Source: a virus. From it: a stretch of DNA of 64,000 nt. Numbering within the stretch: the first letter of the stretch is position 1; every line of letters begins with the position of its first letter. The stretch is from positions 3,597-67,596 of IMG/VR virus record IMGVR_UViG_3300016476_000688. One strand, given 5' to 3'. Shown in pieces: positions 768-14,999 of this stretch. The notes under the pieces were generated by a model. The model did no database searches, had not been told where the DNA came from, and saw only the letters and a program-made list of their open reading frames with translations. The translations under genes were made by a program, and so were the position numbers.

Positions 768-899
768 TAGTATCTCCTTTGCTTTCCTGATGTATCGCAT
801 AATACGCTGAGTGTTGCAAGAGATAAATTACTGTGGATTTTCAAAGTGCTACGTGCCTAGGCGCCGCGGCCCCTAACTACTTGAAGTTAGGGGCTTTTT

Positions 900-1600: not shown

Positions 1601-1718
1601 GATGTTTTCCCTCTTGATGATTATGTATAGCGCGATTCGTGCTGATGTGCAATAACAAAAAACGCTGTAGAATCAATGTGTTAGACCCTACAGCGCCGGG
1701 GCGGCTAACCCCTTGTTT

Positions 1719-1910
1719 TTATTCCTTTTTTGCGATCACAACCTCTGGGTTAGTAATGATCTCCCATTTATCTAAGCTGCTTTCTTGCTTAGACCAGGTA
1801 TTACCAAAGATTGTTGCCGCTCTTATAGACTTAAAAGGCCCGTTCAGAATGATTTGTCCATAGCGTGTGACGACTAGCACGTAAGGACCTTCGCCTACGA
1901 GAATTTTCAT
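1719..1910 (-). CDS. hypothetical protein (63 aa)
   Basis: ORF trimmed to the ATG overlapping the upstream stop. Confidence 0.65.
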   Translation of the reverse strand: MKILVGEGPYVLVVTRYGQIILNGPFKSIRAATIFGNTWSKQESSLDKWEIITNPEVVIAKKE

Positions 1911-2107
1911 AGGACAACCGTCAGAGTTTGCCACGAAAAATATCCGTCGGCGAAGCAGCTTTCGATACAGGCTTCAACACTTGCGCGATCCTCGCGGGCA
2001 ATCTCCGCAACGTGCGGATTATTGCGAAGCCATTCGAGTCCCGCGTCGGTAGTGGCGAAGATGATTCCATCCTCGCCAATACCCCATTCGCTCCACAGAC
2101 GAAACAT
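1907..2107 (-). CDS. hypothetical protein (66 aa)
   Basis: ORF track; TAATG coupling. Confidence 0.75.
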   Translation of the reverse strand: MFRLWSEWGIGEDGIIFATTDAGLEWLRNNPHVAEIAREDRASVEACIESCFADGYFSWQTLTVVL

Positions 2108-2238
2108 TATTTTTTCTCCGGTTTCGCGGTCAGGGTCCAGTGGCTGCCGCTGGTTTGCATTTTCGTCACGACCTGAGAAGCCTTGATGCGAGAAGCAATC
2201 TCAGCCTCATCACGGGCTTCCGTAATCTTGTCAGTCAT
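2107..2238 (-). CDS. 43-aa hypothetical protein
   Basis: Manual translation; AAGGAG RBS after promoter. Confidence 0.65.
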   Translation of the reverse strand: MTDKITEARDEAEIASRIKASQVVTKMQTSGSHWTLTAKPEKK

Positions 2239-2343
2239 GTCGTTCTCCTTTGCTGATAAATATTTATAGACCGATTCGTGTTGCATAACAAATGCAAAAT
2301 GTGTAGTAATATCAATAGTTTACGTGTTGTAGCGCCGGGGCGG

Positions 2344-2592
2344 CTAACCCCTTGTTTCTGCTACGGTTTTTCCATTCTCTAGCCGCACCTCGTTAAGGTT
2401 TGCCGGATAGCTTCCTAAGCTGTCAAGCCAGTCTAGGTCAGGAAATAGAGTCTCGCTGCTATCAAAGACTTGATACAGCATAAGCCGCATAATATCGTGA
2501 CCTGTTATGCTATGGTCTTCCATAACAAGCTTGTCATTGATATAAAGGCCTTGCCAATCGTCGCCTTTAACCAAGGTAATTTGGTTTGCCAT
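2344..2592 (-). CDS. hypothetical protein (82 aa)
   Basis: ORF track. Confidence 0.75.
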   Translation of the reverse strand: MANQITLVKGDDWQGLYINDKLVMEDHSITGHDIMRLMLYQVFDSSETLFPDLDWLDSLGSYPANLNEVRLENGKTVAETRG

Positions 2593-2593
2593 A

Positions 2594-2824
2594 TCAGACC
2601 GCCGAGATTTCGAGAATGTCAGAATTGAAATGGCTTTGCAGCGTAGCTACCACGGTTTCCCAGTCTGCAAAACCTTCTCCAGTAGCGGGATCGCCATCGC
2701 ACCACACATCATCATCGCATTCATCGTCGCAGACGACGCTGAAATTGCTATCTTCTTCCAGAGTGCCGTAGCATTCGACGTCGCGGCCTTCGAAGTGGAC
2801 GACATAGACATGAGGGGCTTCCAT
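2594..2824 (-). CDS. acidic hypothetical protein (76 aa)
   Basis: Trimmed to the ATG at 2824 behind AAGGAG. Confidence 0.75.
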   Translation of the reverse strand: MEAPHVYVVHFEGRDVECYGTLEEDSNFSVVCDDECDDDVWCDGDPATGEGFADWETVVATLQSHFNSDILEISAV

Positions 2825-2975
2825 ATGTTTTCTCCTTTGATGATTAACAATAACCCGAATCGCCAGCATAATGCAAGCGCTATTTTGCTGTGTGTTCTCA
2901 ATAGCTTAGCCCATACCGCGCCCCGCGCGCTAAGTGCTTGATATTGCTGCATAATTTCCGTGTTGTTTATGCAAC

Positions 2976-3035
2976 AAAAAAGCCCCTGCCTTGCGGCAGG
3001 GGCTTGACAAGCTAGCCCCAGATCAGGGCTAGCTT
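2976..3035 (-). terminator. Intrinsic terminator (GC stem, GCAA loop, T-run) preceded by a second hairpin
   Basis: agcccctgcc-ttgc-ggcaggggct with A6 on its left; aagctagccc...gggctagctt. Confidence 0.8.
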
Positions 3036-3049
3036 ACCGATTCGGGCGA

Positions 3050-3370
3050 TTACTCGCCCTGCGGTTTCAGGTGGTCGATGAGAGCCTGAATCGCCTCCTT
3101 GGTGGCGTTCATGAACCCGTCCACGGCGAAAGGGGCGACAGCCTCCAGTTCCCGCATGAGTTCCTTCTTGGTCGGCCCTTCGACCTTTTCAGCCTTGGCA
3201 GGCTTTTCAGCCGCCACATACACACCCTCGCGCACGAGTTTCGAGCGCACCGAGCGGACGGCCTTGCCGATCGACTCAGCGATCGTTTCGACCGATTCCC
3301 CGGCCTGATACCGTTCCACGATGGAAGCGGTCAGTTCCTCGGTGTAGTTCACTTTACGTTCAGCAGCCAT
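3050..3370 (-). CDS. A2: T5 A2-like HTH DNA-binding protein, paralog 1 (106 aa)
   Basis: YTEE...IAESIGKAVRSVRSKLVREGVYV; the SVRSKL motif is recalled from T5 A2; near-identical to 7589-7948. Confidence 0.65.
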   Translation of the reverse strand: MAAERKVNYTEELTASIVERYQAGESVETIAESIGKAVRSVRSKLVREGVYVAAEKPAKAEKVEGPTKKELMRELEAVAPFAVDGFMNATKEAIQALIDHLKPQGE

Positions 3371-3544
3371 ATCTCTATCTCCTTTAGCTGGCGTTGCTTT
3401 CCTCTTCAGTGATTCTGTTATACGCGATTCGCAGGCAGTCAGCAACCGTATTTTTCGCTTGACACGCACAAAATCGTATTTTCTTCTGAGAAAAATTGTG
3501 AGCAAAATCAATGGGTTAGGGCCGGGGGCGCCACCCCCTGCAAC

Positions 3545-3772
3545 TCATTGAGCTGCAAGGGTTTTTTCTGCATCATACCAGCCGCGCCACCAGCATCTAG
3601 CGTAAACGTGTCCAGCCTTGTAAGGGCAGGTTTTGGCCCACCCTTTCAAGCGCATATCTCGCCCCGCATTATAGGCGACCTGTTTATTTATTGCAAGTCG
3701 CTCTGTTTCTGTTTTATTGCGAATATGCAATTTGCAACAGACTCGATCCGGTGGACGATTGCGGGAAAGCAA
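3545..3772 (-). CDS. Rmf/CrpP-fold protein (start uncertain)
   Basis: AYNAG..G...CPY......R.WW.GW..A resembles ribosome modulation factor. Confidence 0.5.
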   Translation of the reverse strand: MLSRNRPPDRVCCKLHIRNKTETERLAINKQVAYNAGRDMRLKGWAKTCPYKAGHVYARCWWRGWYDAEKTLAAQ

Positions 3773-3905
3773 TCACATCCCCACGCGGATACGGGCAGCC
3801 CTCCACACCACAAGGCCATACGCTCGGCTGACCTTTTGTTTCAGCCCAGCAATTGATCCCGCAGGTTTTGCAGGTTCCAGTTTTGGTCATAGGTTTTTTT
3901 GCCAT
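3714..3905 (-). CDS. Cys-rich small protein, possible zinc binder
   Basis: CKTC..C...PCGVEGCPY; coupled to the upstream stop. Confidence 0.6.
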   Translation of the reverse strand: MAKKPMTKTGTCKTCGINCWAETKGQPSVWPCGVEGCPYPRGDVIAFPQSSTGSSLLQIAYSQ

Positions 3906-4108
3906 CAGAATCCCTCCTCGGCTGTGTTTTCTCTCACGGTTTGGCGTTGCGTCGCTTTTGAGACATATACGCCTTCCCGCACCAACTTTGACCGAACTAC
4001 AGCCTCGCTGCGACTGATAGTCGCCCCGATCATAGCAGGCGTTGCGCCTTGCTTATATGCTGCGATTATTGCCTCGGTCAACCATTGCGGCCATTGTTTC
4101 CAGATCAT
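3905..4108 (-). CDS. Short A2-like HTH protein, paralog 2 (67 aa, HTH only)
   Basis: IIAAYKQG.T...IG.TISRSEAVVRSKLVREGVYV; true ATG at 4108 behind GAGGG. Confidence 0.7.
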   Translation of the reverse strand: MIWKQWPQWLTEAIIAAYKQGATPAMIGATISRSEAVVRSKLVREGVYVSKATQRQTVRENTAEEGF

Positions 4109-4231
4109 TGCGCCCTCTTGCTGATAACTGTATATCGCATGATTCGCTGTGCATTGCAACACAATAAAAACGTGCAAAATCAATCGGTTAGTGCGATGGG
4201 CGCCCCACCCGCTAAGTGATTGATATTGCTC

Positions 4232-4260
4232 AAAAAAATGTGGGGGCTTACGCCCCCACA
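4232..4260 (-). terminator. Intrinsic terminator (GTAA loop, T7)
   Basis: tgtgggggc-gtaa-gcccccaca-ttttttt on the minus strand. Confidence 0.8.
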
Positions 4261-4991
4261 ACTTCCGTTTCCGGCTTGACATATTGCGGCAAAAATGCCT
4301 TGCCGTCGATCCCGAGTCGGGTGTTGATTTTTTTCCACACCGCGCCAGCAAGTTCCGCAGGGGACTTGACAACGGGCAGACGTTTCTTGCGGGAAAGCGC
4401 CTTGACCAGAATATCCGATTCGATTTCCACGTCGGACCACGCGATATGGCGCTCCTGAAAATCGGCATTGACAAACTCGTAACGATATGCTTCCTCGGCA
4501 GAGGTCGAAACGAATCGGCCAGACGCGCTCGGAGTCGCCACCTTTGCAAAGTGACGCGGGACCGATTCGCCCCAATAATCCCAAATGTCAAGCAATTCCA
4601 CGCGATGTTGCAGCCACCGCGTCACATTGCCGCCCGTCAGAACCGAAACGGTTTCGGGCAAGTATTTGAAATCAAAGGCGGAATTGTAGGCGCAGCAGAT
4701 CATCCGATGGCCCGCCTGTTGCAATTCTGCAATCTGGCGGTTATATTCGCGCCGAACGTCGAGAATCCCAGCCGGACGAATCAGATGCCCATAGGCGTCG
4801 TCAAAATAGTGGCCCAGCTTTTCCGCAAAGAACGGCACATCATGGCGGAAAGCCTCGCGAATCACATACGATCCGCGGCCATACTCGCGCCCGCGCTTGT
4901 CAATAGTTTTCCAAGCAATATCGAACGCGATACGCTTTTTCATCGTGGTTTCAATGTCCGTAACAACGAACAGAGTCGGGGCCTTAGCCAT
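4248..4991 (-). CDS. DEDDh (DnaQ-like) 3'-5' exonuclease (247 aa)
   Basis: ExoI DIET, ExoII AYNSAFD, ExoIII HIAWSDVE motifs. Confidence 0.85.
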   Translation of the reverse strand: MAKAPTLFVVTDIETTMKKRIAFDIAWKTIDKRGREYGRGSYVIREAFRHDVPFFAEKLGHYFDDAYGHLIRPAGILDVRREYNRQIAELQQAGHRMICCAYNSAFDFKYLPETVSVLTGGNVTRWLQHRVELLDIWDYWGESVPRHFAKVATPSASGRFVSTSAEEAYRYEFVNADFQERHIAWSDVEIESDILVKALSRKKRLPVVKSPAELAGAVWKKINTRLGIDGKAFLPQYVKPETEVVGA

Positions 4992-5123
4992 GTTGCAGGT
5001 GTCCTTTGTTTTCTGCTTCCGTGCATTCTGTATCGCATGATTCGCAGACGGTTGCAAGCACAAAAAACGCAGTAAAATCAATAGGTTAGCGGCGGGGGCG
5101 CTGCGGCACCTAAGTGCCTGATT

Positions 5124-5309
5124 TTACTCCTCAATTTCGACGGTCAGACTCAACCGTTCGCACATCGCATCCCACAGACCGATTCGCATCTCTTCAAGAT
5201 ATTCCTCAATCGCTGAGTCTCCTTTTGCGATTACCTCTTCAGGTATTTCTTCGGTCCATGTAGAGTCCGTTCCGGCGAATCCGTAAGACTCGTAAACTTT
5301 AATCTTCAT
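5124..5309 (-). CDS. acidic hypothetical protein (61 aa)
   Basis: Trimmed to MKIKVYESYG, overlapping the upstream stop. Confidence 0.7.
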   Translation of the reverse strand: MKIKVYESYGFAGTDSTWTEEIPEEVIAKGDSAIEEYLEEMRIGLWDAMCERLSLTVEIEE

Positions 5310-5766
5310 CTTCTTCTTGCTCCTCAAGTTCCATGTCAAGCAGGTCTTGGCAGTGGTGGCAGACAGGCTCTGAGCTGAGTTCGTGCGATTCGAGGTTGTC
5401 AACGTGCCAGTGCCAGCCGCAATGCCCACAAGAGGCAATTGCATCCCAGACCAGAGAGTCAATCTTGGATTGATCCTCGATTGAGAGAGCAGAATATTCT
5501 TCACCCCATTCCACATTGAACGATCCGTCAGAATCGCTGATGATTTCTTCCGCGATTTCTTCCAGACTCTTCACATACGCCGGAACGGTGAAAGCATCCA
5601 GAACCGACCGAGTCGTGATTCTCGATACGATCTTATATTTTTGAGCTTCTGTCTCCCTTGTTTCGGTAGCATACTTTTTTGCCAGCATTTCGCTGTCAAA
5701 TACTCCGACCAGTATTTGAGAGTCATCGTCATAGTAGAGTTCGAATTTGATTTCCGTGTCAGACAT
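5299..5766 (-). CDS. acidic protein with C-terminal zinc ribbon (155 aa)
   Basis: CGHCGW...CHHC; AGGAGG RBS. Confidence 0.75.
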   Translation of the reverse strand: MSDTEIKFELYYDDDSQILVGVFDSEMLAKKYATETRETEAQKYKIVSRITTRSVLDAFTVPAYVKSLEEIAEEIISDSDGSFNVEWGEEYSALSIEDQSKIDSLVWDAIASCGHCGWHWHVDNLESHELSSEPVCHHCQDLLDMELEEQEEDED

Positions 5767-5896
5767 TGCAGCCTCCTGAGTTACCCTCTTATTGCATAAT
5801 TTACAGGCCAGCACAAGAGGAAAATGTTGTTAGTTTTCAAAGGTTTAAGGCGCTGGGCGCCGCCCTGCATAACCTATTGATTATGCAGGGGTTTTT

Positions 5897-6025
5897 TCAA
5901 GGCTTGCCGTAAATCTCCTTAAACCGCTTCCAATCGTAACCCGCTTCTTTAAAGCGGATTGCCGGGTCATATCTGTTGGGGCATATTACCAGCCCCACGC
6001 AAATTGCAAATAGCAGATATTCCAT
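5897..6025 (-). CDS. 42-aa peptide with hydrophobic N-terminus
   Basis: Manual translation MEYLLFAICVGLVICPNRYDPAIRFKE...; TAATG coupling. Confidence 0.55.
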   Translation of the reverse strand: MEYLLFAICVGLVICPNRYDPAIRFKEAGYDWKRFKEIYGKP

Positions 6026-6315
6026 TAATATCCTTTCCCGTCGATAATTCCCTGATACACCCCGCCATTTTCTTCGATTTTACGGTCCTCATAAGGACCG
6101 ATAATAACGCGGTTCAGTTCCATTTTAGCGCATTCAAGCGCGCCCACCATTTCATTCACCACGGCGTATTTCAGCCCTTTGCGGCGAATGTAATTGGCAA
6201 CGAACGTGGACACCAGAAAATTCAATTCTCCGGCATTTTCAGGAGTCCAAAGCGTTCCTTCCACCATCAAATCGTCGTGAATGTCGGTGCGTTGCTGTTG
6301 CGGGATGTAGGGCAT
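6025..6315 (-). CDS. DUF6899-like phage protein (96 aa)
   Basis: MPYI...GELNFLV...GALECAKMEL.R....YED.KI.ENG.VY pattern. Confidence 0.7.
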   Translation of the reverse strand: MPYIPQQQRTDIHDDLMVEGTLWTPENAGELNFLVSTFVANYIRRKGLKYAVVNEMVGALECAKMELNRVIIGPYEDRKIEENGGVYQGIIDGKGY

Positions 6316-6316
6316 T

Positions 6317-6757
6317 TTAGGCGACCTTTTGCAGAGTTTCACGGCCACGACGGCCAAGTTGCGAAGCGATAGCGAAGAAAGCACCTTTTACCAGATTGTC
6401 GGTATCCAGCCACGTCCAGAGGTGGTGATGCGTAAATGCCACATCAGAAATACCGTTCGGGCAGATCGAGCCGCACTTGCCGACGGCATACACGGGCTTG
6501 CCCATACCATAGGCCATTCCGACTTCCACGAGCGCACCGCGCTGTTCTTCGGATTGATCCTCACTGTAGAGCAGAACGAAATCGGAATCGCGCACATCTT
6601 CGTAGCACATTTGCCACAGCAGACGCTTGTTATCCGTAACAATCGGATTGTTACTGTCGAGGTCAATCCACCGCGCTTGCACCGGAAGGCCCAGTGTATC
6701 ACGCAGCATCTTGAATTTGTCAGCGTGCCAGATTTTGCCAGCGGTATAGAATTTCAT
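6317..6757 (-). CDS. Nucleoside 2-deoxyribosyltransferase / dNMP N-glycosidase-like protein (146 aa)
   Basis: FYTAG...D.RDSDFVL...GALVEVGMAYGMGKPVY, the NDT/RCL family signature. Confidence 0.75.
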   Translation of the reverse strand: MKFYTAGKIWHADKFKMLRDTLGLPVQARWIDLDSNNPIVTDNKRLLWQMCYEDVRDSDFVLLYSEDQSEEQRGALVEVGMAYGMGKPVYAVGKCGSICPNGISDVAFTHHHLWTWLDTDNLVKGAFFAIASQLGRRGRETLQKVA

Positions 6758-6866
6758 GGCTTTGTTCCTCTCTTGCCGATGATTATGTATCGCATGATTC
6801 GCCAATCATTACAAGAGAAAAGAATTGTTATTTTTCAATGGGTTAGCGGCGGGGGCGCCTCGCCCT

Positions 6867-7076
6867 CTAAGCATCTGATGTTATTGGTTTTTTCGCTGCT
6901 AGTTCGCAAAATCTCAAAACATGGTCGAGTTCCGAAGCAAATTGAATAGCTTGCGGATTGCCTTTGTCAATCTCCCGTTGCACGTCTTCTAGCATGAATC
7001 TAATTTGCAAGAATGCAACACCGCCATCAGAGTTGACAATCTCAACAAGCTTCATTAGTTTTTGCGTAAGTGTCAT
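6867..7076 (-). CDS. hypothetical helical protein (69 aa)
   Basis: ORF; AGGA RBS. Confidence 0.7.
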   Translation of the reverse strand: MTLTQKLMKLVEIVNSDGGVAFLQIRFMLEDVQREIDKGNPQAIQFASELDHVLRFCELAAKKPITSDA

Positions 7077-7127
7077 ATTCAATTCCTAAAATGTGGCAAT
7101 AGCGGGGGTGGCCACCCCCGCTATCAC

Positions 7128-7320
7128 TTCTTACACCTGTCCGATGGACCGGAGCAGTTTTGGCTGATTAGGCCCAACTCACGCACGTTGTCGCTAGTAT
7201 GTTCTCCGTGTAACATACAACCACACTCCGTTTGCCGGAAAACGGAGTAGAAAGCCTCGGCAGCCAACCCTACCGCTGGTATCTCAGTAACTTCCAGTAA
7301 TCACTCTTTCCGTCCTTCGA
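7128..7320 (-). ncRNA. candidate structured non-coding RNA with its own promoter
   Basis: Promoter TTGCAC-N17-TATATT at 7356-7328, no real ORF, several stems, ends in a perfect palindrome at 7099-7124. Confidence 0.5.
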
Positions 7321-7463
7321 TATAAACAATATAAGCGATTCGAAGACAACGTGCAAGCGTAAAGTGAAGGCGACTAGCAAAATAATGTGTAATGAAATCA
7401 ATCATTTAGCGCTGGGCGCGCCCCACCCCCTAACCCCTTGATTTCAAAGGGTTTTTAGGTGAG

Positions 7464-7553
7464 TGACCCGCTGAGGACTTGAACCTCACACCCCCTCTGC
7501 AAAGTTGTCAAGTAGTTGCAGCTACCTTGACAGGGTGGCACCGTGCGCGGGCC
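7464..7553 (-). ncRNA. tRNA-like RNA (canonical acceptor stem and T arm, aberrant core)
   Basis: GGCCCGC/GCGGGTC-A acceptor, TGAGG-TTCAAGT-CCTCA T arm, 10-bp stem with CTGCAA loop. Confidence 0.65.
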
Positions 7554-7588
7554 GTAGGGGCTAGGCGGTTTCCCGCCTAGCCTATCGT

Positions 7589-7948
7589 TCAGGCAGCTTC
7601 CGCAGCCGCTTCATCCTCAGCCGGAGCTTCCGCTTCCGTCTCCAGATGGGCGATCAGAGCCGACAGAGCTTCCTTCGTCGCATTGACGAAGCCGTCAATC
7701 GGCAGATGCGGAGCCAGACCTTCGAGGTCGCGCAGAAGTTCCTTTTTCGTCGGACCTTCCTCGCGCTTCGCTTTCACGGGCTTTTCAGCCGCGACGTAGA
7801 CGCCCTCACGGACCAGCTTGGACCGGACCGAACGGACCGCCTTGCCGATGGACTCGGCAATGGCTTCGACGGTTTCACCCGCCTGATACCGCTCGACGAT
7901 AGCCGCCGTCAGTTCTTCGCTGTAGTTCACTTTCGCTTCCTTAGCCAT
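7589..7948 (-). CDS. A2: T5 A2-like HTH DNA-binding protein, paralog 3 (119 aa)
   Basis: Same motif as 3050-3370; acidic Ala-rich tail. Confidence 0.65.
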   Translation of the reverse strand: MAKEAKVNYSEELTAAIVERYQAGETVEAIAESIGKAVRSVRSKLVREGVYVAAEKPVKAKREEGPTKKELLRDLEGLAPHLPIDGFVNATKEALSALIAHLETEAEAPAEDEAAAEAA

Positions 7949-8128
7949 ATCTCACTCCTATGTGCTGGCTTGTTTCTCTTTCAGTAAGATATGTATAACG
8001 CGACTCACGACGATTCGGCAAGCGAAAAAAGCAGAAAAAGAAGCCTCAAATCGAAAAAAGTTTTGTGTGTTTTCAATGGGTTAGCGGAGGGGGCGCTGGG
8101 CTGGTTAAGCCCTTGATTTACTTTGTCT

Positions 8129-8329
8129 TTAAGCCTCGTCAATATAATCGTCGTCTTCCCAGCCAGCGCTTAGCAGACATTCGTCTGCGCCTTCTTCCGG
8201 GCTCAGACCTTCTTCGTAGGCGTCTCGACTCAGCCAGTCAGGCAACATGCCTTGATCGAGTCCGCCAGTTTTCTTGAGCAGGATTTTATCTACAGCTTTC
8301 ATCCATTGTTCATAGGTCATAGCTTGCAT
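8129..8329 (-). CDS. small acidic phage protein (DUF5419-like, 66 aa)
   Basis: TYEQWMKAVD...LPDW..RDAYE.GLSP.E pattern. Confidence 0.65.
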   Translation of the reverse strand: MQAMTYEQWMKAVDKILLKKTGGLDQGMLPDWLSRDAYEEGLSPEEGADECLLSAGWEDDDYIDEA

Positions 8330-8347
8330 AGTGTTCTCCTGATTTAT

Positions 8348-8423
8348 TGGTAGGCGCGGTCGGACTCGAACCGACAGCTTAAGCATTTTAAGTGCTCTGC
8401 GTTTACCTTTTCGCCACGCGCCC
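8348..8423 (-). tRNA. trnL: tRNA-Leu(UAA), 76 nt, short variable loop, encoded CCA
   Basis: GGGCGCG/CGCGCCT acceptor, GCG/CGC D stem, GAGCA-CTTAAAA-TGCTT anticodon arm, GTCGG-TTCGAGT-CCGAC T arm, ACCA end; own promoter at 8436-8464. Confidence 0.9.
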
Positions 8424-8544
8424 GTTGTTTAATTATTTATAGCTGATTCGCATCCACGCAGCAAGCAATAATTTATTGTGTATTATCAATGGTTTAATGC
8501 GCTGGGCGCCGTGCCTGCTAACCTTTTGAGTTAGCAGGCTTTTT

Positions 8545-8886
8545 CTAGTTGCAGCTTGCGCTGAGAATGTTCCGATACCACGACAGAAGCGGAACGCGCC
8601 AGCCCGTGACCGTAAAGTCACACGTTGCCCCTTCTTTGATGCTTCCGTAGAGGTCGGAAGAATTGAATTTCATTGCCAGAAGGGAGTCGGTGTTCTCGAA
8701 AGTTTCCCGATCAGTAAAGATCAGGTATTTCGATTCTTGTGTCTGGCCTGTGCCAGTCATGATTCGTTCCTTGTCCTGAATCACGACGCCGGACACCGTG
8801 TCCATAGTGGCGAAATGAATCCAGATCTTGGCCGGAACGACGATCAGAAGAAGGCCCACAAAGAGCCAGATATATGCGCGTGTCAT
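8545..8886 (-). CDS. membrane-anchored protein, DUF1523-like (113 aa)
   Basis: N-terminal TM; V.GWR.P.LS.Y.NI motif. Confidence 0.7.
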   Translation of the reverse strand: MTRAYIWLFVGLLLIVVPAKIWIHFATMDTVSGVVIQDKERIMTGTGQTQESKYLIFTDRETFENTDSLLAMKFNSSDLYGSIKEGATCDFTVTGWRVPLLSWYRNILSASCN

Positions 8887-8898
8887 GTGTTTTCCTTA

Positions 8899-9207
8899 TC
8901 AGTGAAGTTTGTGTTCGCGGTCGTCCGAATGTCCACCATTCGAATCGCCACCGTTATCATCGCTTTGACCGCCCTTCGACTTGCCGCCGTTGCTGTCGCC
9001 GCTCGAATCGCCGCCATTCGAATCATCACCGTTGTCGGTCGAATCATCACCGCTGGTAGCCGAAGCGGTTTCACGCCCACCATCTTCCGAAAAGGCGTTG
9101 TTGCTGTAGCACTCCGAGTAAACGGGTTTGCCGTTCACATAGACCACGCAATCCGGCTTAACGCAAGCCATGAGAGCGAGAGGCAGAGAGAGAAGAAGAT
9201 ATTTCAT
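8899..9207 (-). CDS. putative lipoprotein with acidic GDDSNG-repeat tail
   Basis: Signal peptide ending LALMA-C; D/G/S/N low-complexity tail. Confidence 0.7.
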   Translation of the reverse strand: MKYLLLSLPLALMACVKPDCVVYVNGKPVYSECYSNNAFSEDGGRETASATSGDDSTDNGDDSNGGDSSGDSNGGKSKGGQSDDNGGDSNGGHSDDREHKLH

Positions 9208-9246
9208 GTTTTGTTCCTCAGTTCACAAGTCAACTTATGACTTGTT

Positions 9247-9456
9247 TTAGTTGATTTCGAGTTCGAGCTTTTCAAAGCCCTGTTGCACCGTCTGGACGCT
9301 TTCGTGAACCCCGTCAGGGAACACGACGAACATTTCTGTGTAGATCGTTCCGTTGCTGAGAATCTCCGATTCAGCCACGATCCCGCCGACAACCGATTCG
9401 TAAATGGTCGTCTTGAATGTTTGTCCGATCAAGTCAGTCAGCTTGGGCTTGTTCAT
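9247..9456 (-). CDS. hypothetical protein (69 aa)
   Basis: Trimmed to MNKPKL behind GGAGG. Confidence 0.7.
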   Translation of the reverse strand: MNKPKLTDLIGQTFKTTIYESVVGGIVAESEILSNGTIYTEMFVVFPDGVHESVQTVQQGFEKLELEIN

Positions 9457-9567
9457 GGCTGCCTCCGTTTCCGATGATTCTGTATCGCATATACCAGCAG
9501 CAAACACAAGCACAAAAATATCGTTATAAATCAAAGGCTTAGGCCGTGCGGCGCCGCCCCTCCTAAC

Positions 9568-9660
9568 TCATTGATAATAAATGAGAATTTGAAGGGTCAG
9601 GATTGCGACCGGAACCCCGGTGCGAATCAGTTCCATCAGGAAACGAATCTTATTCATCAT
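9568..9660 (-). CDS. 30-aa hydrophobic peptide (MMNKIRFLMELIRTGVPVAILTLQILIYYQ)
   Basis: Manual translation; GGAGG upstream. Confidence 0.5.
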   Translation of the reverse strand: MMNKIRFLMELIRTGVPVAILTLQILIYYQ

Positions 9661-9661
9661 G

Positions 9662-10141
9662 TCAAGCCTCCATCAGCTTTTTGTTGACTTTGATTGCGTT
9701 AAGACACGCGACCCCGATTTTCCGCATTTCTGCAATTACAGGTTTAGCGTCGTCGAACATCACAACCGGAAGGTGTGCGAATTGACGCAGATTGCGGAGA
9801 CGCTGAATCTTGCGGCGCTTGAGTTTAGCGTCCTTGATGTGATTCTCGGACCCGTCGAGAGGACGGCACAGAATCTTGTGCGCGTCAAGCCCGTGGTGGG
9901 CAAGAAAATCGTAATCGTCCTGATTCATTGCACGCGCCGTGCAAATCACGATATAGTTTTCAGAACGATTTAGGCGCTTGAAGGTTTCGGCCAGCGGCAG
10001 GAGCGTATCCCGGAAAATGCTTTCCCGATTCTTCATCGCAAAATATTTTTCGAGGTCCAGAGTCCCGTCAGGTTTGTTCGGGGTCCGATGAGCCGAGTCG
10101 ATGATCGTTTCATCAAGGTCGAAAACTACGATACGCTTCAT
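9662..10141 (-). CDS. HAD-superfamily phosphatase (159 aa)
   Basis: VVFDLDETI (DxDxT), ICTAR, K, MFDD motifs. Confidence 0.85.
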   Translation of the reverse strand: MKRIVVFDLDETIIDSAHRTPNKPDGTLDLEKYFAMKNRESIFRDTLLPLAETFKRLNRSENYIVICTARAMNQDDYDFLAHHGLDAHKILCRPLDGSENHIKDAKLKRRKIQRLRNLRQFAHLPVVMFDDAKPVIAEMRKIGVACLNAIKVNKKLMEA

Positions 10142-10271
10142 GTGAGCCTCCTTTGATGATTCTTTATCGCACGATTCGACGGGGAACGCAACAGGAAAAT
10201 ATCGTTTAGTTTCAAGGGGTTAGCCAACGCGGCGGCCCCCTTGCTAACGCATTGATTAGCAAGGGTTTTTC

Positions 10272-10466
10272 TTACAGCGGCTGCCACACGATGGAGTTGA
10301 TGACAAGGCAAGTCCCGTTATCGTCCGGCGACAGATCGCCGTGGTGAAGGGTGAAGTATGCGACGGCATCTTGAAGGCTTTTGCCATAGATGGTCTGCTC
10401 GTAGCGACCTTCGATAATGCCAGTGGCAGCGACCGCAGTCCAGATGAAGTGGTAGTTGCCTTCCAT
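10272..10466 (-). CDS. hypothetical protein (64 aa)
   Basis: Trimmed to MEGNYHF behind GGAGGA. Confidence 0.7.
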   Translation of the reverse strand: MEGNYHFIWTAVAATGIIEGRYEQTIYGKSLQDAVAYFTLHHGDLSPDDNGTCLVINSIVWQPL

Positions 10467-10614
10467 AGCGCGTCCTCCTTGTTTCGGTGAGACTGTTATG
10501 CCGCGATTCGCAGAGCGTGTCAAGTAGCTAAAAAAATGCTGTAAAATCAACGGTTTGGCTGGCCGGGCGCCCCGTCGCGTAACCTATTGATTACGCTAGG
10601 GTTTTCTCTAAAAA

Positions 10615-10795
10615 TTAAGCATCTAAAATCACATCTTACCATTAGAAACAAGGGCTAAGATGTGTGCGGTGTTGTGACGGTCCGCTAACCTTCGTTACAC
10701 TGCCAAGTCATGAGTATATTATCCAACTAGGTTCCTTGTCCGCTTTTTTAGATCAACCAAACAGCGCCGTTTACGGCGAGTCTCGAGATTTAATC
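10615..10795 (-). ncRNA. candidate structured RNA in a 3' intergenic gap
   Basis: No ORF; ATCTAAAA/TTTTAGAT closing stem, CACATCTTA/TAAGATGTG hairpin, CGCCG-TAAA-CGGCG hairpin. Confidence 0.4.
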
Positions 10796-10800
10796 ATTTG

Positions 10801-11001
10801 CTAGCTTCCCAGCCCAAAAAGGGCAAACCCTGCCACCACAATATTCGTTACCAGCAACGGGTTATCGTGCTGTTTGATAGCATGGCCGATCCATGCTGCA
10901 CACGCCACCAAACCCACGCCCATAGTCAGCTTGACGCTGAACCCCGTAGACAGAAGCGCCATTTGACAAACAACGCCGATTGTCCCGATAATTCCGAACA
11001 T
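10801..11001 (-). CDS. small multi-pass membrane protein (66 aa)
   Basis: Three hydrophobic segments; AAGGAA RBS. Confidence 0.7.
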   Translation of the reverse strand: MFGIIGTIGVVCQMALLSTGFSVKLTMGVGLVACAAWIGHAIKQHDNPLLVTNIVVAGFALFGLGS

Positions 11002-11016
11002 GCTTGATTCCTTGTA

Positions 11017-11250
11017 TTAGTCGCGCACGCCGTAGGCGCGACGCATGTGAGCGTCCTGCACGCCCTTTTCCCATTCCGCGTAGGCCCGATCACCAGCCGC
11101 AACCGAGTCAGCCACGGCACGCTTGCCCTCGCGCATCGCACGGTAGATCGTGCGGTCGCTCTCAATCGCGCGAGTCCCCTGCGCGATCACCGTCGCCTTG
11201 CCGCCGCGGGCGGCGAATTCTGCTTTCAGAGCTTCGAGGTCGAGGGCCAT
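11017..11250 (-). CDS. hypothetical protein (77 aa)
   Basis: ORF; AAGGAG RBS. Confidence 0.75.
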   Translation of the reverse strand: MALDLEALKAEFAARGGKATVIAQGTRAIESDRTIYRAMREGKRAVADSVAAGDRAYAEWEKGVQDAHMRRAYGVRD

Positions 11251-11382
11251 GTCTATCTCCTTTGCTGATGATTATGTATAGCGTGATTCTATGCAGGCAT
11301 CAAGAACAAAAAATGCTGTAAGATCAATGGGTTAGCGCCGGGGGCGCCGCCTAGCGTAACCTATTGATTACGCTAGGATTTT

Positions 11383-11682
11383 TCATTGATTGCAGATCAA
11401 CACCTCCACCAGTTCTTTGGCTTCTTTCAGCCCCAGACGCTGAGAAAAAGCATCGCGCAGAATCTTGATAGCGGCGATGCGATTGCCGATCTGAGCCTCA
11501 CGCCGCGCGTCACGAAGTCGGTCAGCGTTGTAGCCCGGCGCGTAGACAACCCCGACCTGCATAGACGGGAGTTCGCCAACAAGCTGAGCAGCTTCGGTCA
11601 ATGTTTTGGTAATATAAGCCTTGCCGTGATCATCCACCAAAACAAAGCCGTTCTGGGCGACAGTGATTTCTTCGATACGCAT
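11383..11682 (-). CDS. protein with C-terminal ribosomal bL12-like domain (99 aa)
   Basis: IAAIKILRDAFSQRLGLKEAKELVE resembles the L7/L12 motif KIAVIK.VR..TGLGLKEAK.LVE. Confidence 0.7.
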   Translation of the reverse strand: MRIEEITVAQNGFVLVDDHGKAYITKTLTEAAQLVGELPSMQVGVVYAPGYNADRLRDARREAQIGNRIAAIKILRDAFSQRLGLKEAKELVEVLICNQ

Positions 11683-11804
11683 AGCATTCTCCTTTGCTGA
11701 TGATTCTTTATATCCTGCATTGCAGTTACTTACAACAAGAAAAAAATACATATAATCAAAGACTTAGCCTACGGGGCGCTGGGCTGGCTAAGCCCTTGTT
11801 TTGA

Positions 11805-11981
11805 TTACATTTTCCTCAACTTGTTGACAATCACATAGGCGTTTGCTTGATCCGGGCCGTTTGCAACCCAGTTGCGGATACGACGACCGCTGGCATAGGT
11901 GACATAAGATGCCACAACCCAAACACCGTTCTCGCATTCAACCTCATAGCAGGTATCAATTACAGCGCCGTTGTTAAACAT
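11805..11981 (-). CDS. hypothetical protein (58 aa)
   Basis: Manual translation MFNNGAVIDTCYEVECENGVWVVASYVTY...; GGGAG RBS. Confidence 0.65.
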   Translation of the reverse strand: MFNNGAVIDTCYEVECENGVWVVASYVTYASGRRIRNWVANGPDQANAYVIVNKLRKM

Positions 11982-12263
11982 CTCTGTTCTCCCTTTTGAT
12001 AATTAATACTAGCATACGAATCACCACGTAGCAACACGATTCTTTCCTTGGAATCTCAATGACTTACGTGTTGCTGCGCCACTTACTGCAAGCCATTGAT
12101 TTTGCACGATTTTACAGTTCTGCACAAACCATAAAATAATGCGTTCCAGCCAGAATCTCACTTTTCCAGTCTCGCACCATTGCCAAAAAGCAACTATAGT
12201 GCGCTTCTGTATGTCGCCTGTCTACTGTTCGCACGATATAGATCATTTTTTAACTTCGGTTTA

Positions 12264-12608
12264 TTACTTGATCCGCTTGAGGGTCTTGGCGACGCTCCCC
12301 TCCTTCACCCCAAGGGTGAAGGCGACGGCGACGATTTTCTGATTCACCGCCCAGACCGAGTCAGCGACGGCGGAGTCGCGCTTGGCAAATTCCCAGTTAT
12401 TGCCCGTCTTGGCAATGTTGCAGCCTTTGCAAAGGCATTGCAGATTGTCCGCCGTAGCCTTGCCGCCTTTGCTTTCCGCGATAATATGGTCGCAATCAAG
12501 GAACGGGGCATAATGCGCGCCGCCACCGAACCCGCAAGCGCGGCAGATATACCCGTCACGGGCCAGAACCGTTGCGCGAACCGAGGACGAGATTGCAGCT
12601 TTTGCCAT
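12264..12608 (-). CDS. HNH endonuclease (114 aa)
   Basis: CRAC...DCDHII..SKGG....NLQCLCKGCN..K. Confidence 0.85.
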   Translation of the reverse strand: MAKAAISSSVRATVLARDGYICRACGFGGGAHYAPFLDCDHIIAESKGGKATADNLQCLCKGCNIAKTGNNWEFAKRDSAVADSVWAVNQKIVAVAFTLGVKEGSVAKTLKRIK

Positions 12609-12787
12609 GTTGGCCTCCTGTGCCTATGCCTTACAATCGCGCATTTTCTCGCGATTCGCAAGACATAAACAACGGATAGACCAAAATAAGTTTTGGCCCG
12701 CGTCAACGATTCCGCTTGACTACGCCCAGGGTTCTGTGCTACCCTGCTGGCGCCAGGTGTGGCTGATTCGCCACACCCTCTTTTTAT

Positions 12788-13030
12788 TTACGCCACCAGC
12801 TTGACTTTCGCGGCAAACTCATCTTCGACCGTCAACGAGAATGGAAGGCCGATTCGCTCTCCGTCCTGAGCCGTGCGGATCGTGACGCCCATCAGGTCCA
12901 GTTCCGACGCCGCGAGGATCTTACGACGCGGCACCCACAGCGGGCGAACCCCATCCTTGCCAGCATCCGCCTGCGACACGAAGGCCACCGCCGCTTCAGT
13001 TTCCCGAACCACGAACCCTTGGACCTGCAT
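12788..13030 (-). CDS. hypothetical protein (80 aa), paralog of 14607-14846
   Basis: G(F/Y)VVR.T.AAVAFV...GV.PLW.PR.KI...TAQDGER.G.P shared. Confidence 0.8.
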   Translation of the reverse strand: MQVQGFVVRETEAAVAFVSQADAGKDGVRPLWVPRRKILAASELDLMGVTIRTAQDGERIGLPFSLTVEDEFAAKVKLVA

Positions 13031-13183
13031 CTCTATCTCTCCTCTGTTTCGATGATTCTTTATCGCATAGTCTGGCCTGATTCGCAAGAGCCTAGACTGT
13101 ATAAAGTTTTGTTTCAGCGCACATTATGCGCTTGACAACGAACATGATTCGGGTGTAAAATACTGGCGCGTGATTCGGGCGAA

Positions 13184-13339
13184 TCACTCTTCCTCCTCTT
13201 TCTCGTCAATGAGTTCTTTAACCTCTTCAACGCTGTTTCCGTTCACCTGCCATTCCTGCGACTCGCCGTCAAACCGATCGTTGTGGGTCGCCACGAACCC
13301 GATCCAAGCATCTGCGATGGTCCAACCACGGTATTGCAT
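13184..13339 (-). CDS. acidic 51-aa protein
   Basis: Manual translation MQYRGWTIADAW...VEEVKELIDEKEEEE; AAGGAG RBS. Confidence 0.7.
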   Translation of the reverse strand: MQYRGWTIADAWIGFVATHNDRFDGESQEWQVNGNSVEEVKELIDEKEEEE

Positions 13340-13402
13340 CTGTCTCTCCTTTGTTCCGATGATTCTTTATCGCATGCTTTGCCGTGATTCGCAAGAGAAA
13401 TC

Positions 13403-13618
13403 TTAGATGCGGGCCAGCCTTTCCCGCAGCATGGCATCATTCCATGCATCCCAGAGTTGATTCACGGTCTGGTTCATCTGGTCATATGCGCGTTCCAGAC
13501 CAGCGATCAGCAGAGGATTCGCATTGCGCGCACGAGCCTTGAGCAGCTTGGCATACAGCGAGTCGGCGCGGGCAGCGGCTTTGAGCATGGCGGCGTTGGT
13601 TTCTTGCGACAGGTTCAT
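13403..13618 (-). CDS. helical hypothetical protein (71 aa)
   Basis: ORF; AAGGAG RBS. Confidence 0.75.
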   Translation of the reverse strand: MNLSQETNAAMLKAAARADSLYAKLLKARARNANPLLIAGLERAYDQMNQTVNQLWDAWNDAMLRERLARI

Positions 13619-13749
13619 GGCTATCTCCTTCTGTTAATTATATATCGCATAGCGCCGCATGATTCGCAACAGAAAAAAATCGTTGTAAATCAAGGGCTTA
13701 GCCCGGAGGGCGCGGCCCCTGCTAAATGCTTGATTTAGCAGGGTTTTTC

Positions 13750-13938
13750 TCAGTCCTCGAACACGTCGTCCATCTCGCAGGACAAGGCAAAGTCTGCCGG
13801 ATGGAATGTTTGTTCCAGAAGGCGTTGATGCTTTTCCAGCGCCTCGATACAGGCCACGCCGGACATACCCACATCCACCGCATAGTGATAGTCGGGGGCG
13901 TCGATACCGAACATGGTGAGGATCAGAACGAATTTCAT
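13750..13938 (-). CDS. hypothetical protein (62 aa)
   Basis: Trimmed to MKFVLIL behind GGAG. Confidence 0.65.
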   Translation of the reverse strand: MKFVLILTMFGIDAPDYHYAVDVGMSGVACIEALEKHQRLLEQTFHPADFALSCEMDDVFED

Positions 13939-13939
13939 A

Positions 13940-14080
13940 TCAGTTGACTCCAGCGGCTGCGTTGGCGATTTTGGTGACGACCGCGGCGGCCTCATACAGA
14001 GTCACAGCGGCGATCATGAAGAACGGGGCGATACACGCGACGATCAGGCTACCGAACAGGAACATCTGTGCGACTTTCAT
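13940..14080 (-). CDS. 46-aa membrane peptide
   Basis: Trimmed to MKVAQMFLFG behind GAGGAG. Confidence 0.6.
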   Translation of the reverse strand: MKVAQMFLFGSLIVACIAPFFMIAAVTLYEAAAVVTKIANAAAGVN

Positions 14081-14132
14081 TTTCCAACTCCTCGGTTTCA
14101 TACTGCTTTTATACTTCGATTCGGCTCTAGTG

Positions 14133-14333
14133 TCAAGCCCCTCGGGCATACCGCTTCGGCAGGGTCATGCCCGTGGTCAACTCCCGCAGGGCGCGCTGCG
14201 ACGTGGCCCGCGTGATGTGGCCTTGTGCGCCTGCCCAGCGAGTCGCCATTTCTTTGGCCTTCGGCCCGATGAACACGCCGGAAATACGGTAGTCACGATC
14301 TTTGTCCGAGACGATGTAGAACGGGGTAGCCAT
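14133..14333 (-). CDS. basic hypothetical protein (66 aa)
   Basis: Trimmed to MATPFY behind GAGGAG. Confidence 0.7.
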   Translation of the reverse strand: MATPFYIVSDKDRDYRISGVFIGPKAKEMATRWAGAQGHITRATSQRALRELTTGMTLPKRYARGA

Positions 14334-14550
14334 CTGTTGCTCTCCTCTTCTGTGATTCCTTTTTCGCATAGCGTTGTGCGATTCGCAAGAGAAAAACAAC
14401 GGCCAGACCAGATAACCTTTTGTGTCATAGCAGACTTTCCTGTTGACTCGGATACGCGAATCATGCTACCCTGCTGGCGCATGATTCGTGGTTCGTCCGG
14501 CTGGCGCCTGCCTCATCATAACATAGCGAATCACGCTATGTCAATACCCT

Positions 14551-14588
14551 AAAAACAAATAGACCGCTATCCGAAGATAGCGGCCTAG
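14551..14588 (-). terminator. terminator with cUUCGg tetraloop
   Basis: ccgctatc-ttcg-gatagcgg then tctatttgtttttag on the minus strand. Confidence 0.7.
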
Positions 14589-14606
14589 CGTCTTAGTCGC
14601 GGCGGC

Positions 14607-14846
14607 TTAGGCCGCGACTTTCGCAAGGAAGGCGTCGCACACGTCCAGCGTGTGCGGGATGCCGACCCGCTCGCCATCCTGCGCCGTGTCGATGAACACG
14701 GCCAGAGCATCGGACTCGACCATCGAGTCAATCTTTTTGCGGGGGATCCAGAGGGGCTTGACGCCTTTCGTGTTACGGTTCTCTTCTGCAACGAAGGCAA
14801 CCGCCGCATCCGTCACCCGCACCACGTATCCGATCATCTTGGCCAT
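14607..14846 (-). CDS. hypothetical protein (79 aa), paralog of 12788-13030
   Basis: Shared motifs as above. Confidence 0.8.
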   Translation of the reverse strand: MAKMIGYVVRVTDAAVAFVAEENRNTKGVKPLWIPRKKIDSMVESDALAVFIDTAQDGERVGIPHTLDVCDAFLAKVAA

Positions 14847-14999
14847 CTTTCGCTTCCCTCTGTTAGCGTTTCGATGATTCTTTATCGCATAGCGCACACC
14901 GATTCGCAAGAGAAAAGATTGTGCCTACCCCGCGCCCTAACGTATTGACACGCAAGCGGGAATCGCATAAGGTGATTCTATCAACAGAGGATGACCGCC

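Follow-up and report, generated by a model that had tools for sequence, protein, structure and literature searches.

Most promoters in the early-gene block of what is, by its structural genes, a distant T5-like phage carry a GANTC box at one of two fixed upstream positions, and the core, the flanks and both positions of these boxes agree with the published GcrA site. We consider regulation by host GcrA and the methylase CcrM the most likely reading of the boxes, but it is unproven and we put its probability at roughly 0.5. If this reading is true, the first genes of the phage would be switched on through the host cofactor GcrA, and judged by sequence the boxes are a T5-like phage case of GcrA-type promoter sites.

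GANTC boxes in the early-block promoters

In the window, the whole stretch of 64,000 nucleotides analysed, we curated 26 sigma70-type promoters of the form TTGnnn-N17-[G/T]ATAnA. Start sites were predicted, promoter positions carry an error of ±1, and box positions were counted with the -10 hexamer set as -12..-7. Class I boxes, with GANTC at -21..-17 (±1), were present in 15/26 promoters and class II boxes, with GANTC at -31..-27 as TTGCGAATC, in 7/26; one promoter (8021) has both. The box centres lie at -19/-18 and -29 relative to the predicted starts. A GANTC box upstream of the -10 was found in 21/26 promoters, the five without one being those at 11735, 9509, 5816, 819 and 70, and any GANTC from -35 to +1 in 23/26; the initial annotation had given about 20 of 27 promoters with GANTC. 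All 18 sites that it cited were present, displaced by at most one base, and its list had missed the boxes at 11285 and 2857 (GATTC) as well as the plus-strand promoter at 14944-14972 (box 14960). The sequence of nearly all boxes is cGAATC[g/a], corresponding to YGATTCG on the opposite strand; the early genes and their promoters lie on the minus strand, and the plus strand of the window therefore shows YGATTCG. The promoters are as follows.

14881..14909, minus: class II TTGCGA-N17-GATAAA; box GAATC 14901-14905 (-31..-27), second GAATC 14876-14880 (-6..-2)
14360..14388, minus: class II TTGCGA-N17-GAAAAA; box 14380-14384, GAATC 14354-14358 past the -10
14108..14136, minus: class I TTGACA-N17-TATAAA; box 14118-14122 (-21..-17)
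13641..13669, minus: class II TTGCGA-N17-GATATA; box 13661-13665
13366..13394, minus: class II TTGCGA-N17-GATAAA; box 13386-13390, GAATC 13361-13365 (-6..-2)
13059..13087, minus: class II TTGCGA-N17-GATAAA; box 13079-13083, GAATC 13054-13058 (-6..-2)
12633..12661, minus: class II TTGCGA-N17-GATTGT, HNH endonuclease gene; box 12653-12657
11707..11735, minus: TTGTAA-N17-TATAAA, no upstream box; GAATC 11702-11706 (-6..-2)
11275..11303, minus: class I TTGATG-N17-TATACA; box aGAATCa 11285-11289
10495..10523, minus: class I TTGACA-N17-CATAAC; box 10505-10509
10163..10191, minus: class I TTGCGT-N17-GATAAA, HAD phosphatase gene; box 10173-10177, GAATC 10158-10162 (-6..-2)
9481..9509, minus: TTGTGT-N17-GATACA, no upstream box; GAATC 9476-9480 (-6..-2)
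8436..8464, minus: class I TTGCTG-N17-TATAAA, 5' of tRNA-Leu(taa); box 8445-8449, 1 base closer to the -10
7992..8021, minus: TTGCCG-N18-TATACA, HTH paralogue gene; GAGTC 8002-8006 (class I place) and GAATC 8012-8016 (class II place)
7328..7356, minus: class I TTGCAC-N17-TATATT, no ORF downstream (structured RNA or odd tRNA); box 7337-7341
6786..6814, minus: class I TTGTAA-N17-GATACA; box 6796-6800
5788..5816, minus: TTGTGC-N17-AATAAG, no GANTC at all
5029..5057, minus: class I TTGCAA-N17-GATACA, 247-aa DEDD-like exonuclease gene; box 5039-5043
4131..4159, minus: class I TTGCAA-N17-GATATA; box 4141-4145
3417..3445, minus: class I TTGCTG-N17-TATAAC, HTH paralogue gene; box 3426-3430, GAATC 3411-3415 past the -10
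2847..2876, minus: TTGCAT-N18-TATTGT; flipped box cGATTCg 2857-2861
2263..2291, minus: class I TTGTTA-N17-TATAAA; box 2273-2277
1624..1652, minus: class I TTGCAC-N17-TATACA; box 1634-1638
791..819, minus: TTGCAA-N17-GATACA, no GANTC
42..70, minus: TTGCAA-N17-TATACA, no GANTC
14944..14972, plus: divergent rightward TTGACA-N17-TAAGGT; GAATC 14960-14964 in the spacer, GATTC 14974-14978 past the -10

GAATC or GATTC was also found at -6..-2 in 9/26 promoters, and this is the actual place of what had been annotated as a site, GAATCATC at +1. This site probably serves as a discriminator or start-site element rather than a GcrA box, because the core conserved in it is AATCATC, TAATC occurs there as often as GAATC, and the site falls outside the published GcrA range.

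Enrichment and conservation of the boxes

Exact class I geometry was observed 9 times (0.14 expected) and class II geometry 7 times (1.77 expected); as the promoters are related cassettes, these chance figures rest on non-independent draws. GAATC/GATTC was the top over-represented 5-mer of the early block (113 vs 48 expected, z 9.4), and among the 16 xyNy'x' words GANTC showed the highest enrichment in the block (O/E 2.06). Broken down by region, a comparison suggested in the initial annotation, promoters held 31 GANTC per 1,170 bp (~6-fold) and early-block coding sequence 83 per 9,855 bp (~1.9-fold), the latter with no strand bias. The ~1.9-fold excess inside early coding sequence is left unexplained by a GcrA model.

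Given the non-independence of the cassettes, box conservation in orthologous promoters is the stronger evidence. Among 69 distinct promoters from the phage and four close relatives, 51 had an upstream GANTC, starting only at -31 (10), -21 (26) or -20 (16). The 7-mers were CGAATCA (20), CGAATCG (19), AGAATCA (5) and AGAATCG (4), which read TGATTCG, CGATTCG, TGATTCT and CGATTCT on the opposite strand. The box was kept in 22/25 orthologous promoter pairs across the four close relatives, with neighbouring spacer positions only 24-52% identical; that of the promoter at 5029..5057, for example, was retained in its orthologues from L200, L209 and L227. Its centre base differed in 7 of the 22 pairs (A/G/T, flipped GATTC included), so selection acts on GA.TC, and from this pattern of retention we conclude that the boxes are under purifying selection in that form. 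In more distant relatives the homologous promoters have no box at all. The phages with the box fall into a single clade, at 5.5-6.5 GANTC per kb vs 1.2-2.0 elsewhere; in the sister clades that lack it, no xyNy'x' word is more depleted than GANTC (O/E 0.58 and 0.62). GANTC being purged in these sister clades, the hosts of the phage family would therefore act on it; GANTC depletion is also seen in CcrM-bearing genomes (PMC3973325).

The phage and its early block

The phage record, from a freshwater metagenome, is a linear fragment estimated as 65% complete by CheckV, and no relatives were found among the 185,579 species genomes searched. Its terminase, portal, protease-capsid and tail genes are homologous to those of T5-like phages (Demerecviridae), which also gave the best matches, at identities that indicate distant kinship (TerL 40%, capsid/protease ~33%). 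On this homology the phage is a distant member of that group, and its nearest cultured relatives are T5-like phages with Gammaproteobacteria hosts. The early block spans ~18 kb at ~50% G+C, vs 37% in the structural genes. Familiar freshwater alphaproteobacteria have a higher G+C than the 37-50% of the phage, and this range counts against reading the host as alphaproteobacterial, as does the infection of Gammaproteobacteria by all known cultured T5-like phages. Made up of small leftward genes, the block adjoins the structural module, and its products include an HNH endonuclease, a dmp-like HAD phosphatase and small HTH proteins. Nearly all of the genes are preceded by a promoter of their own, which follows an IHF-like dyad. 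The label "pre-early" is given by analogy, from gene content and position.

GcrA sites, core promoters and a possible mechanism

The published GcrA consensus is TGATTCG/YGAKTCK, with regulon sites narrowly centred at about -20 (PMC4647560). GcrA boxes mostly have their centre at -20±1 and -30±2, the active form of GcrA is a monomer, and PcsM has the box Gm6AATC at -22..-18 (PMC9976885). The core promoters of the phage, in addition, look alphaproteobacterial from their base composition, with rare -7T and conserved G-14 and C-13. The -7 base is A in 19 of the 26 promoters and T in 3, and -7T occurs in 25/153 promoters (16%) across the phage family; it is found in 90-99% of non-alphaproteobacterial vs 30-43% of alphaproteobacterial promoters (PMC7703639, PMC8407463). 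The conserved G-14 (22/26) and C-13 (19/26) agree with GCtANAWC, the -10 consensus of Caulobacter RpoD (PMC8144410).

The initial annotation had proposed that the takeover genes are wired to host GcrA and methylation state. The site match, the selection on GA.TC and the alphaproteobacterial-like core promoters speak for this proposal, while the search for a CcrM-like methylase or GcrA homologue that it recommended yielded neither: CcrM-type methylase (PF01555) was not found in the phage record or five related contigs (59-78 kb), nor was GcrA (PF07750) in the same contigs or the six frames of the record. With no phage methylase found, GANTC methylation would depend wholly on host CcrM. In Caulobacter, CcrM occurs for only a short part of the cell cycle. 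That the phage might sense cell-cycle stage through the boxes, as had also been suggested, is pure speculation.

Three HTH paralogues were examined as possible members of the GcrA family and rejected, as neither sequence nor fold matched the DNA-binding domain of GcrA. They gave only sub-threshold HTH_58 and sigma70_r4 matches in Pfam and no GcrA in PDB sequence and profile searches; a structural model (pLDDT 78) searched with Foldseek matched generic HTH folds only, none at E<=1e-3 and with no GcrA in the top 50. Their recognition helix is invariant in relatives with and without boxes. The earlier alternative of a phage reader of the motif is weakened, since these proteins do not co-vary with the box and have only a generic HTH fold.

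Under the GcrA reading, the boxes would be GcrA-type sites that form part of the host-type (sigma70) promoters in the early-gene block. The host would be an alphaproteobacterium that has both CcrM, an orphan methylase, and GcrA, a cofactor bound to sigma70; virion DNA would carry N6-methyladenine at GANTC, placed there by host CcrM in the previous infection. Two further steps draw support from the present data: RNA polymerase carrying GcrA would find the entering promoters by a box centred at ~-19 or -29, on the DNA face opposite the polymerase, and a GcrA monomer on the box, still attached to sigma region 2, would help loading and opening at -10 elements without -7T. About 20 small early genes might then be expressed fast and strongly, scaled to GcrA level and methylation state.

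Alternative explanations

The box could instead be the operator of another monomer-binding protein, either a host factor or a phage shut-off repressor, acting independently of methylation in any proteobacterial host and resembling the GcrA site by coincidence. We regard this as unlikely, though several observations suit it: the boxes overlap the spacer or the -35, the usual place of a repressor operator; T5 pre-early genes are shut off by a phage function, with A1 annotated as required; the hosts of the cultured relatives are Gammaproteobacteria; and the record and related contigs yielded no phage methylase. However, the free centre base and fixed GA.TC better suit a GANTC-specific reader or methylase, and the box is allowed at two positions, separated by one helical turn, which are those of the two GcrA classes. 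The HTH paralogues, with their invariant helix, are the only obvious DNA-binding candidates of the phage, no clade-specific early protein emerged from an incomplete comparison, and pre-early promoters have to fire ahead of any phage protein.

Selection on a methylatable word, and its purging in sister clades, comparable to the purging of E. coli restriction and methylation words from the first-step-transfer (FST) region of T5, would also be expected if methylation acted without GcrA. In such a system CcrM or a HinfI-type methylase, from the host or a plasmid, would mark the spacer or -35 and alter promoter strength, directly or via another m6A reader, telling incoming (methylated) from new (unmethylated) phage DNA and timing early shut-off. 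This is quite improbable: the YGATTCG flanks and -20/-30 placement are GcrA-specific rather than methylase-specific, and a direct methyl effect needs no flanking bases or fixed helical face. We know of no example of such a non-GcrA m6A promoter reader. It is very improbable indeed that the box is a functionless passenger of a promoter cassette spread by duplication and recombination in the early block. The promoters are clearly related cassettes (T-run, TTGC, aTGC-GATAcA and AATCATC in common), five presumably work without an upstream box, and the homologous promoters of distant relatives lack it. Against this, the box is retained between orthologues while the flanking spacer is near random, the same word appears in two registers with a centre base that turns over, and the box-bearing phages are one GANTC-rich clade.

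Comparison with known systems

The GcrA-activated, CcrM-methylated sigma70 promoters of Caulobacter crescentus, such as PcsM (PMC4647560, PMC5887438, PMC9976885), resemble the phage promoters in their GANTC core, TGATTCG/YGAKTCK flanks, single (monomer) site near -20 or -30 on one DNA face, and weak -10 without -7T. They differ in that the present cases are phage promoters, not those of a cell-cycle gene, and are known from sequence alone. The phage has the box in ~80% of the promoters of one block, whereas in Caulobacter a minority of promoters have it; we saw no downstream (+5..+30) boxes in the phage, and GAATC occurs at -6..-2, where Caulobacter has almost none.

The T5 pre-early (FST) region, whose host-RNAP promoters are strong, is similar in its homologous structural genes, its small leftward genes beside the structural module, and its dmp-like HAD phosphatase, HNH endonuclease and small HTH proteins. 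In T5 as in the phage family, the early block is depleted of words targeted by the host: T5 has purged E. coli-specific words, with restriction/methylation words at 0.15 (CCNGG) and 0.05 (GGNCC) in its FST region. GANTC is neutral in T5 (O/E 1.25), in contrast to its enrichment in the early block of the phage, and the T5 pre-early promoters examined have -7T (TAAAAT, TATAAT), which most promoters of the present phage lack. Also unlike T5 are the individual promoters behind IHF-like dyads and the difference in G+C between early block and structural genes. Finally, the box-less relatives, with GANTC at O/E ~0.6, are like genomes avoiding the restriction sites of HinfI-type GANTC systems; the phage is the opposite, its GANTC being 2-fold enriched and positioned in promoters.

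Promoter architecture of the early block

The best-supported mechanism for the GANTC boxes in the early promoters is that they are read by GcrA, the sigma70-bound cofactor that recognizes GANTC methylated by the alphaproteobacterial orphan methylase CcrM, and we assign this reading a probability of about 0.5. All of the GANTC sites cited in the initial annotation are present in the sequence of the promoters. Read in the coding direction, i.e., on the minus strand, they conform to TTGnnn-N17-[G/T]ATAnA, and in our curated set of 26 a TGC usually precedes the -10 hexamer (an extended -10) and a T-run lies upstream. GANTC occupies -21 to -17 (±1), within the spacer, in 15 of the 26 (class I) and, as TTGCGAATC, -31 to -27, overlapping the -35, in 7 (class II); one promoter has both upstream boxes and five have neither. 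The exact class I geometry was seen 9 times against 0.14 expected, and that of class II 7 times against 1.77.

The early block as a whole is rich in this word: GAATC/GATTC is its top over-represented 5-mer (113 vs 48), and GANTC is the most enriched of 16 interrupted palindromes of the form xyNy'x' (observed/expected ratio, O/E, 2.06). Promoter DNA holds 31 GANTC per 1,170 bp, an approximately 6-fold enrichment, and early coding DNA (window 1-14990) holds 83 in 9.9 kb, approximately 1.9-fold. The coding-sequence enrichment involves all four variants without strand bias, and the promoter model gives no explanation for it. Beyond the early block CGAATC[AG] is rare, with seven sites counting both strands. 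Additional cGAATCa words (e.g., 13146, 13172 and 14483) sit in rightward, antisense promoter-like modules amid the class II promoters (window 12700-14550, plus strand).

A further GAATC/GATTC lies at -6 to -2 in 9 of the 26 promoters, and the initial annotation had placed it at the predicted +1. Here the conserved core is AATCATC, and relatives without upstream boxes carry GAnTTATC at the same place. We did not adopt this site as a third GcrA box because it falls outside the published range, Caulobacter having almost no GcrA sites there, and because TAATC is as frequent as GAATC; more probably it is a discriminator or an element of the start site.

Around 20 intergenic dyads lie just upstream of most promoters (window 90-13735, e.g., 5848-5900, 10223-10265 and 11335-11377), with the sequence AATCAAT-n-GGTTAGC ... 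GGCGCC ... GCTAACC-n-ATTGATT and then a T-run. The two arms of the dyad match the IHF consensus WATCAANNNNTTR in inverted orientation about a GC-rich centre, and the dyads additionally score as terminator-like hairpins in both directions. In every relative, whether or not it has GANTC boxes, ATCAA is among the most enriched 5-mers, and an IMG/VR pattern scan with the dyad word returned mostly single chance matches.

Conservation of the boxes in related phages

We retrieved 28 related loci with a 247-aa early protein (window 4248-4991, minus strand), which is present in all of them. It has no Pfam match and is probably a DEDD-type 3'-5' exonuclease, because its DIETT, NAAFD and H-x4-D motifs are invariant. 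The boxes are common to four close relatives (L200/L201, L202, L209 and L227), and in this box-bearing clade 51 of 69 distinct promoters have GANTC between -35 and -13, starting only at -31 (10), -21 (26) or -20 (16) and mostly within the 7-mers CGAATCA (20), CGAATCG (19) and AGAATCA/G (9). Among 25 orthologous promoter pairs the box was kept in 22, six of these shifted by one base, while the spacer positions flanking it showed only 24-52% identity. The centre base differed in 7 of the 22 kept pairs; the promoter of one helix-turn-helix (HTH) gene, for example, has GAGTC in the window phage, GAATC in L200 and L209, GATTC in L202 and GAGTC in L227. The constrained word is therefore GA.TC and not merely GAATC, and GA.TC is the specificity of CcrM/HinfI-type enzymes. 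These alignments indicate that the boxes are under selection as GANTC.

More distant relatives have plainly homologous promoters before the same genes, with GANTC in only 2 of 72. In the box-less loci (L203-L208 and L210-L226) none of the 16 interrupted palindromes is more depleted than GANTC (O/E 0.58 and 0.62), and in L203 we counted 9 GAATC against 34.5 expected. The exonuclease tree unites the box-bearing phages in a single clade (support 90/93) with 5.5-6.5 GANTC per kb vs 1.2-2.0 elsewhere; L212 and L215 are intermediate, with decayed boxes. As a control, the first-step-transfer region of T5 is neutral for GANTC (O/E 1.25) and purged of CCNGG (0.15) and GGNCC (0.05), which we take to be words that E. 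coli systems act on, so the O/E statistic seems to report words acted on by the host. The hosts of this T5-like family thus seem to act on GANTC, and the box-less sister clades resemble CcrM-bearing genomes, for which GANTC depletion has been reported (PMC3973325). Separately, GTAC (8 vs 37 expected) and CCNGG (21 vs 52) are strongly depleted in the record's early block (1-18600), as they are in the early block of close relatives, which may represent restriction avoidance.

Genome layout and clues to the host group

The IMG/VR record is 74,644 bp long and 65% complete (CheckV), the window being its bases 3597-67596. The early block (window 1 to ~14,900) holds ~40 small minus-strand genes at ~50% G+C; beyond a divergent point at ~14,900-14,970 the genes run rightward and include, at ~37% G+C, a structural module of terminase, portal, protease-capsid fusion, tail tube, tape measure and gpJ-like protein. 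The jump in G+C spans window 1-15000 (~50%) vs 21000-64000 (~37%). A chimeric assembly was ruled out because an independent 78-kb contig, G001, has the same layout, with a low-G+C structural module adjoining a GANTC-rich early block of 50% G+C. Between the two phages, identity is 85% for the early exonuclease and falls to 59% for the terminase, a difference indicative of mosaicism. ARAGORN predicted a tRNA-Leu(taa) at window 8348-8423 (minus strand) and, at 7463-7553 (minus strand), an unusual tRNA-like gene whose "anticodon" has 2 bases; each of them follows a class I promoter of its own.

For both terminase (40%) and capsid (33%), the best hits lie in T5-like phages (Demerecviridae) that infect Gammaproteobacteria, and by megablast the early block has no DNA match in any cultured phage. 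Alignment of the terminase large subunit and exonuclease to 185,579 species genomes found no relative of the phage. The DNA derives from a freshwater metagenome, and the runs listed by a sequencing-run search were mostly freshwater metagenomes, with no RNA runs among them. That cultured T5-like phages infect Gammaproteobacteria speaks against an alphaproteobacterial host. The phage's G+C is also low for familiar freshwater alphaproteobacteria, which counts against the GcrA/CcrM reading.

The promoters themselves point, indirectly, to an alphaproteobacterial host. T occurs at -7 in 3 of 26 promoters in the window and in 25 of 153 when the whole phage family is counted; published surveys report it in 30-43% of alphaproteobacterial promoters, compared with 90-99% of those from other bacteria (PMC7703639; PMC8407463). 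Unlike most window promoters, both of the annotated T5 pre-early promoters whose -10 hexamer is clear carry this T. G at -14 (22 of 26) and C at -13 (19 of 26) are conserved, the same preference as in the Caulobacter RpoD -10 consensus GCtANAWC (PMC8144410). The depletion of GANTC in the sister clades is a further indirect clue to such a host.

Candidate readers and alternative readings

The search for a CcrM-like methylase or GcrA homologue elsewhere in the phage genome, suggested earlier, gave nothing: no PF01555 methylase or PF07750 GcrA was found in six frames of the 74.6-kb record or of five related contigs, two of which belong to the box-bearing clade and reach 40-60 kb beyond the early block. 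Methylation would consequently rest on host CcrM alone, a point that also weighs against the GcrA/CcrM reading. The initial annotation had also suggested a phage reader of the motif, for which the early block offers three HTH paralogues:

Window 7589-7948, minus strand: HTH paralogue with invariant motif VRSVRSKLVREGVY
Window 3050-3370, minus strand: HTH paralogue with invariant motif VRSVRSKLVREGVY
Window 3905-4108, minus strand: HTH paralogue with invariant motif VRSVRSKLVREGVY

Every relative has 2-4 copies. The paralogues weakly resemble the "D5 protein" of a Vibrio phage of the T5-like group (E 5e-3, 51% over 44 aa). We ruled these proteins out as GcrA-like readers: they do not match GcrA by Pfam, PDB sequence or profile, a Foldseek search of PDB with an AlphaFold model (pLDDT 78) retrieved nothing beyond generic HTH folds, none at E ≤ 1e-3, and the presumed recognition helix is the same whether or not a relative has boxes. 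They are poor candidates, and a presence/absence table of 38 early ORFs in partial loci revealed no clean clade-specific alternative. That some protein other than GcrA reads the box is rather unlikely in our estimation. We consider it less likely still that methylation of the box acts without GcrA; the GA.TC constraint would suit such an effect, and the fixed positions of the boxes are those of GcrA sites. Passenger sequence is very improbable, with the box kept in 22 of 25 orthologous pairs amid diverged flanks.

Returning to GcrA and CcrM, a broader reading can be put forward tentatively. This T5-like lineage would infect alphaproteobacteria that carry CcrM and GcrA, although the family is not known from such hosts, and its sister clades would have taken opposing courses: one purges GANTC from early DNA, and the other would have put consensus GcrA boxes in ~80% of immediate-early promoters, gating take-over transcription by methylation of the incoming genome and a host cell-cycle cofactor. 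If true, a virulent phage activates its first genes via a host epigenetic reader, which would connect phage take-over to bacterial epigenetics in a new way, and infection success would depend on host cell-cycle stage (GcrA level) and on virion DNA methylation by the previous host. We found no paper describing phage promoters that carry GcrA boxes. The combination of GANTC boxes with promoters lacking -7T could serve as a sequence-only host marker for uncultured phages, and the contrast of box-bearing with GANTC-purged sister clades is a natural experiment in the acquisition or avoidance of host regulatory words by phages. As compact, strong-looking parts, the promoters could also be tried in alphaproteobacterial genetics.

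Comparison with known GcrA sites

By sequence, the phage boxes match GcrA sites in core, flanks and both positions. The GcrA consensus is TGATTCG, more broadly YGAKTCK (Haakonsen et al., PMC4647560), and the phage word on the window plus strand is YGATTCG. Regulon sites are "narrowly centered around -20" and at +2 to +30, with almost none at -10 (PMC4647560), and Wu et al. describe GcrA boxes as "mostly centered at -20+/-1 and -30+/-2", a restriction ascribed to the need for the DNA-binding domain to lie on the DNA face opposite RNA polymerase (PMC9976885). Phage boxes centre at -19/-18 and -29, counted from predicted starts with the -10 hexamer taken as -12 to -7; the PcsM promoter has its Gm6AATC box at -22 to -18 (PMC9976885). 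GcrA works as a monomer (PMC9976885), and the phage boxes are likewise single, their two classes lying one helical turn apart.
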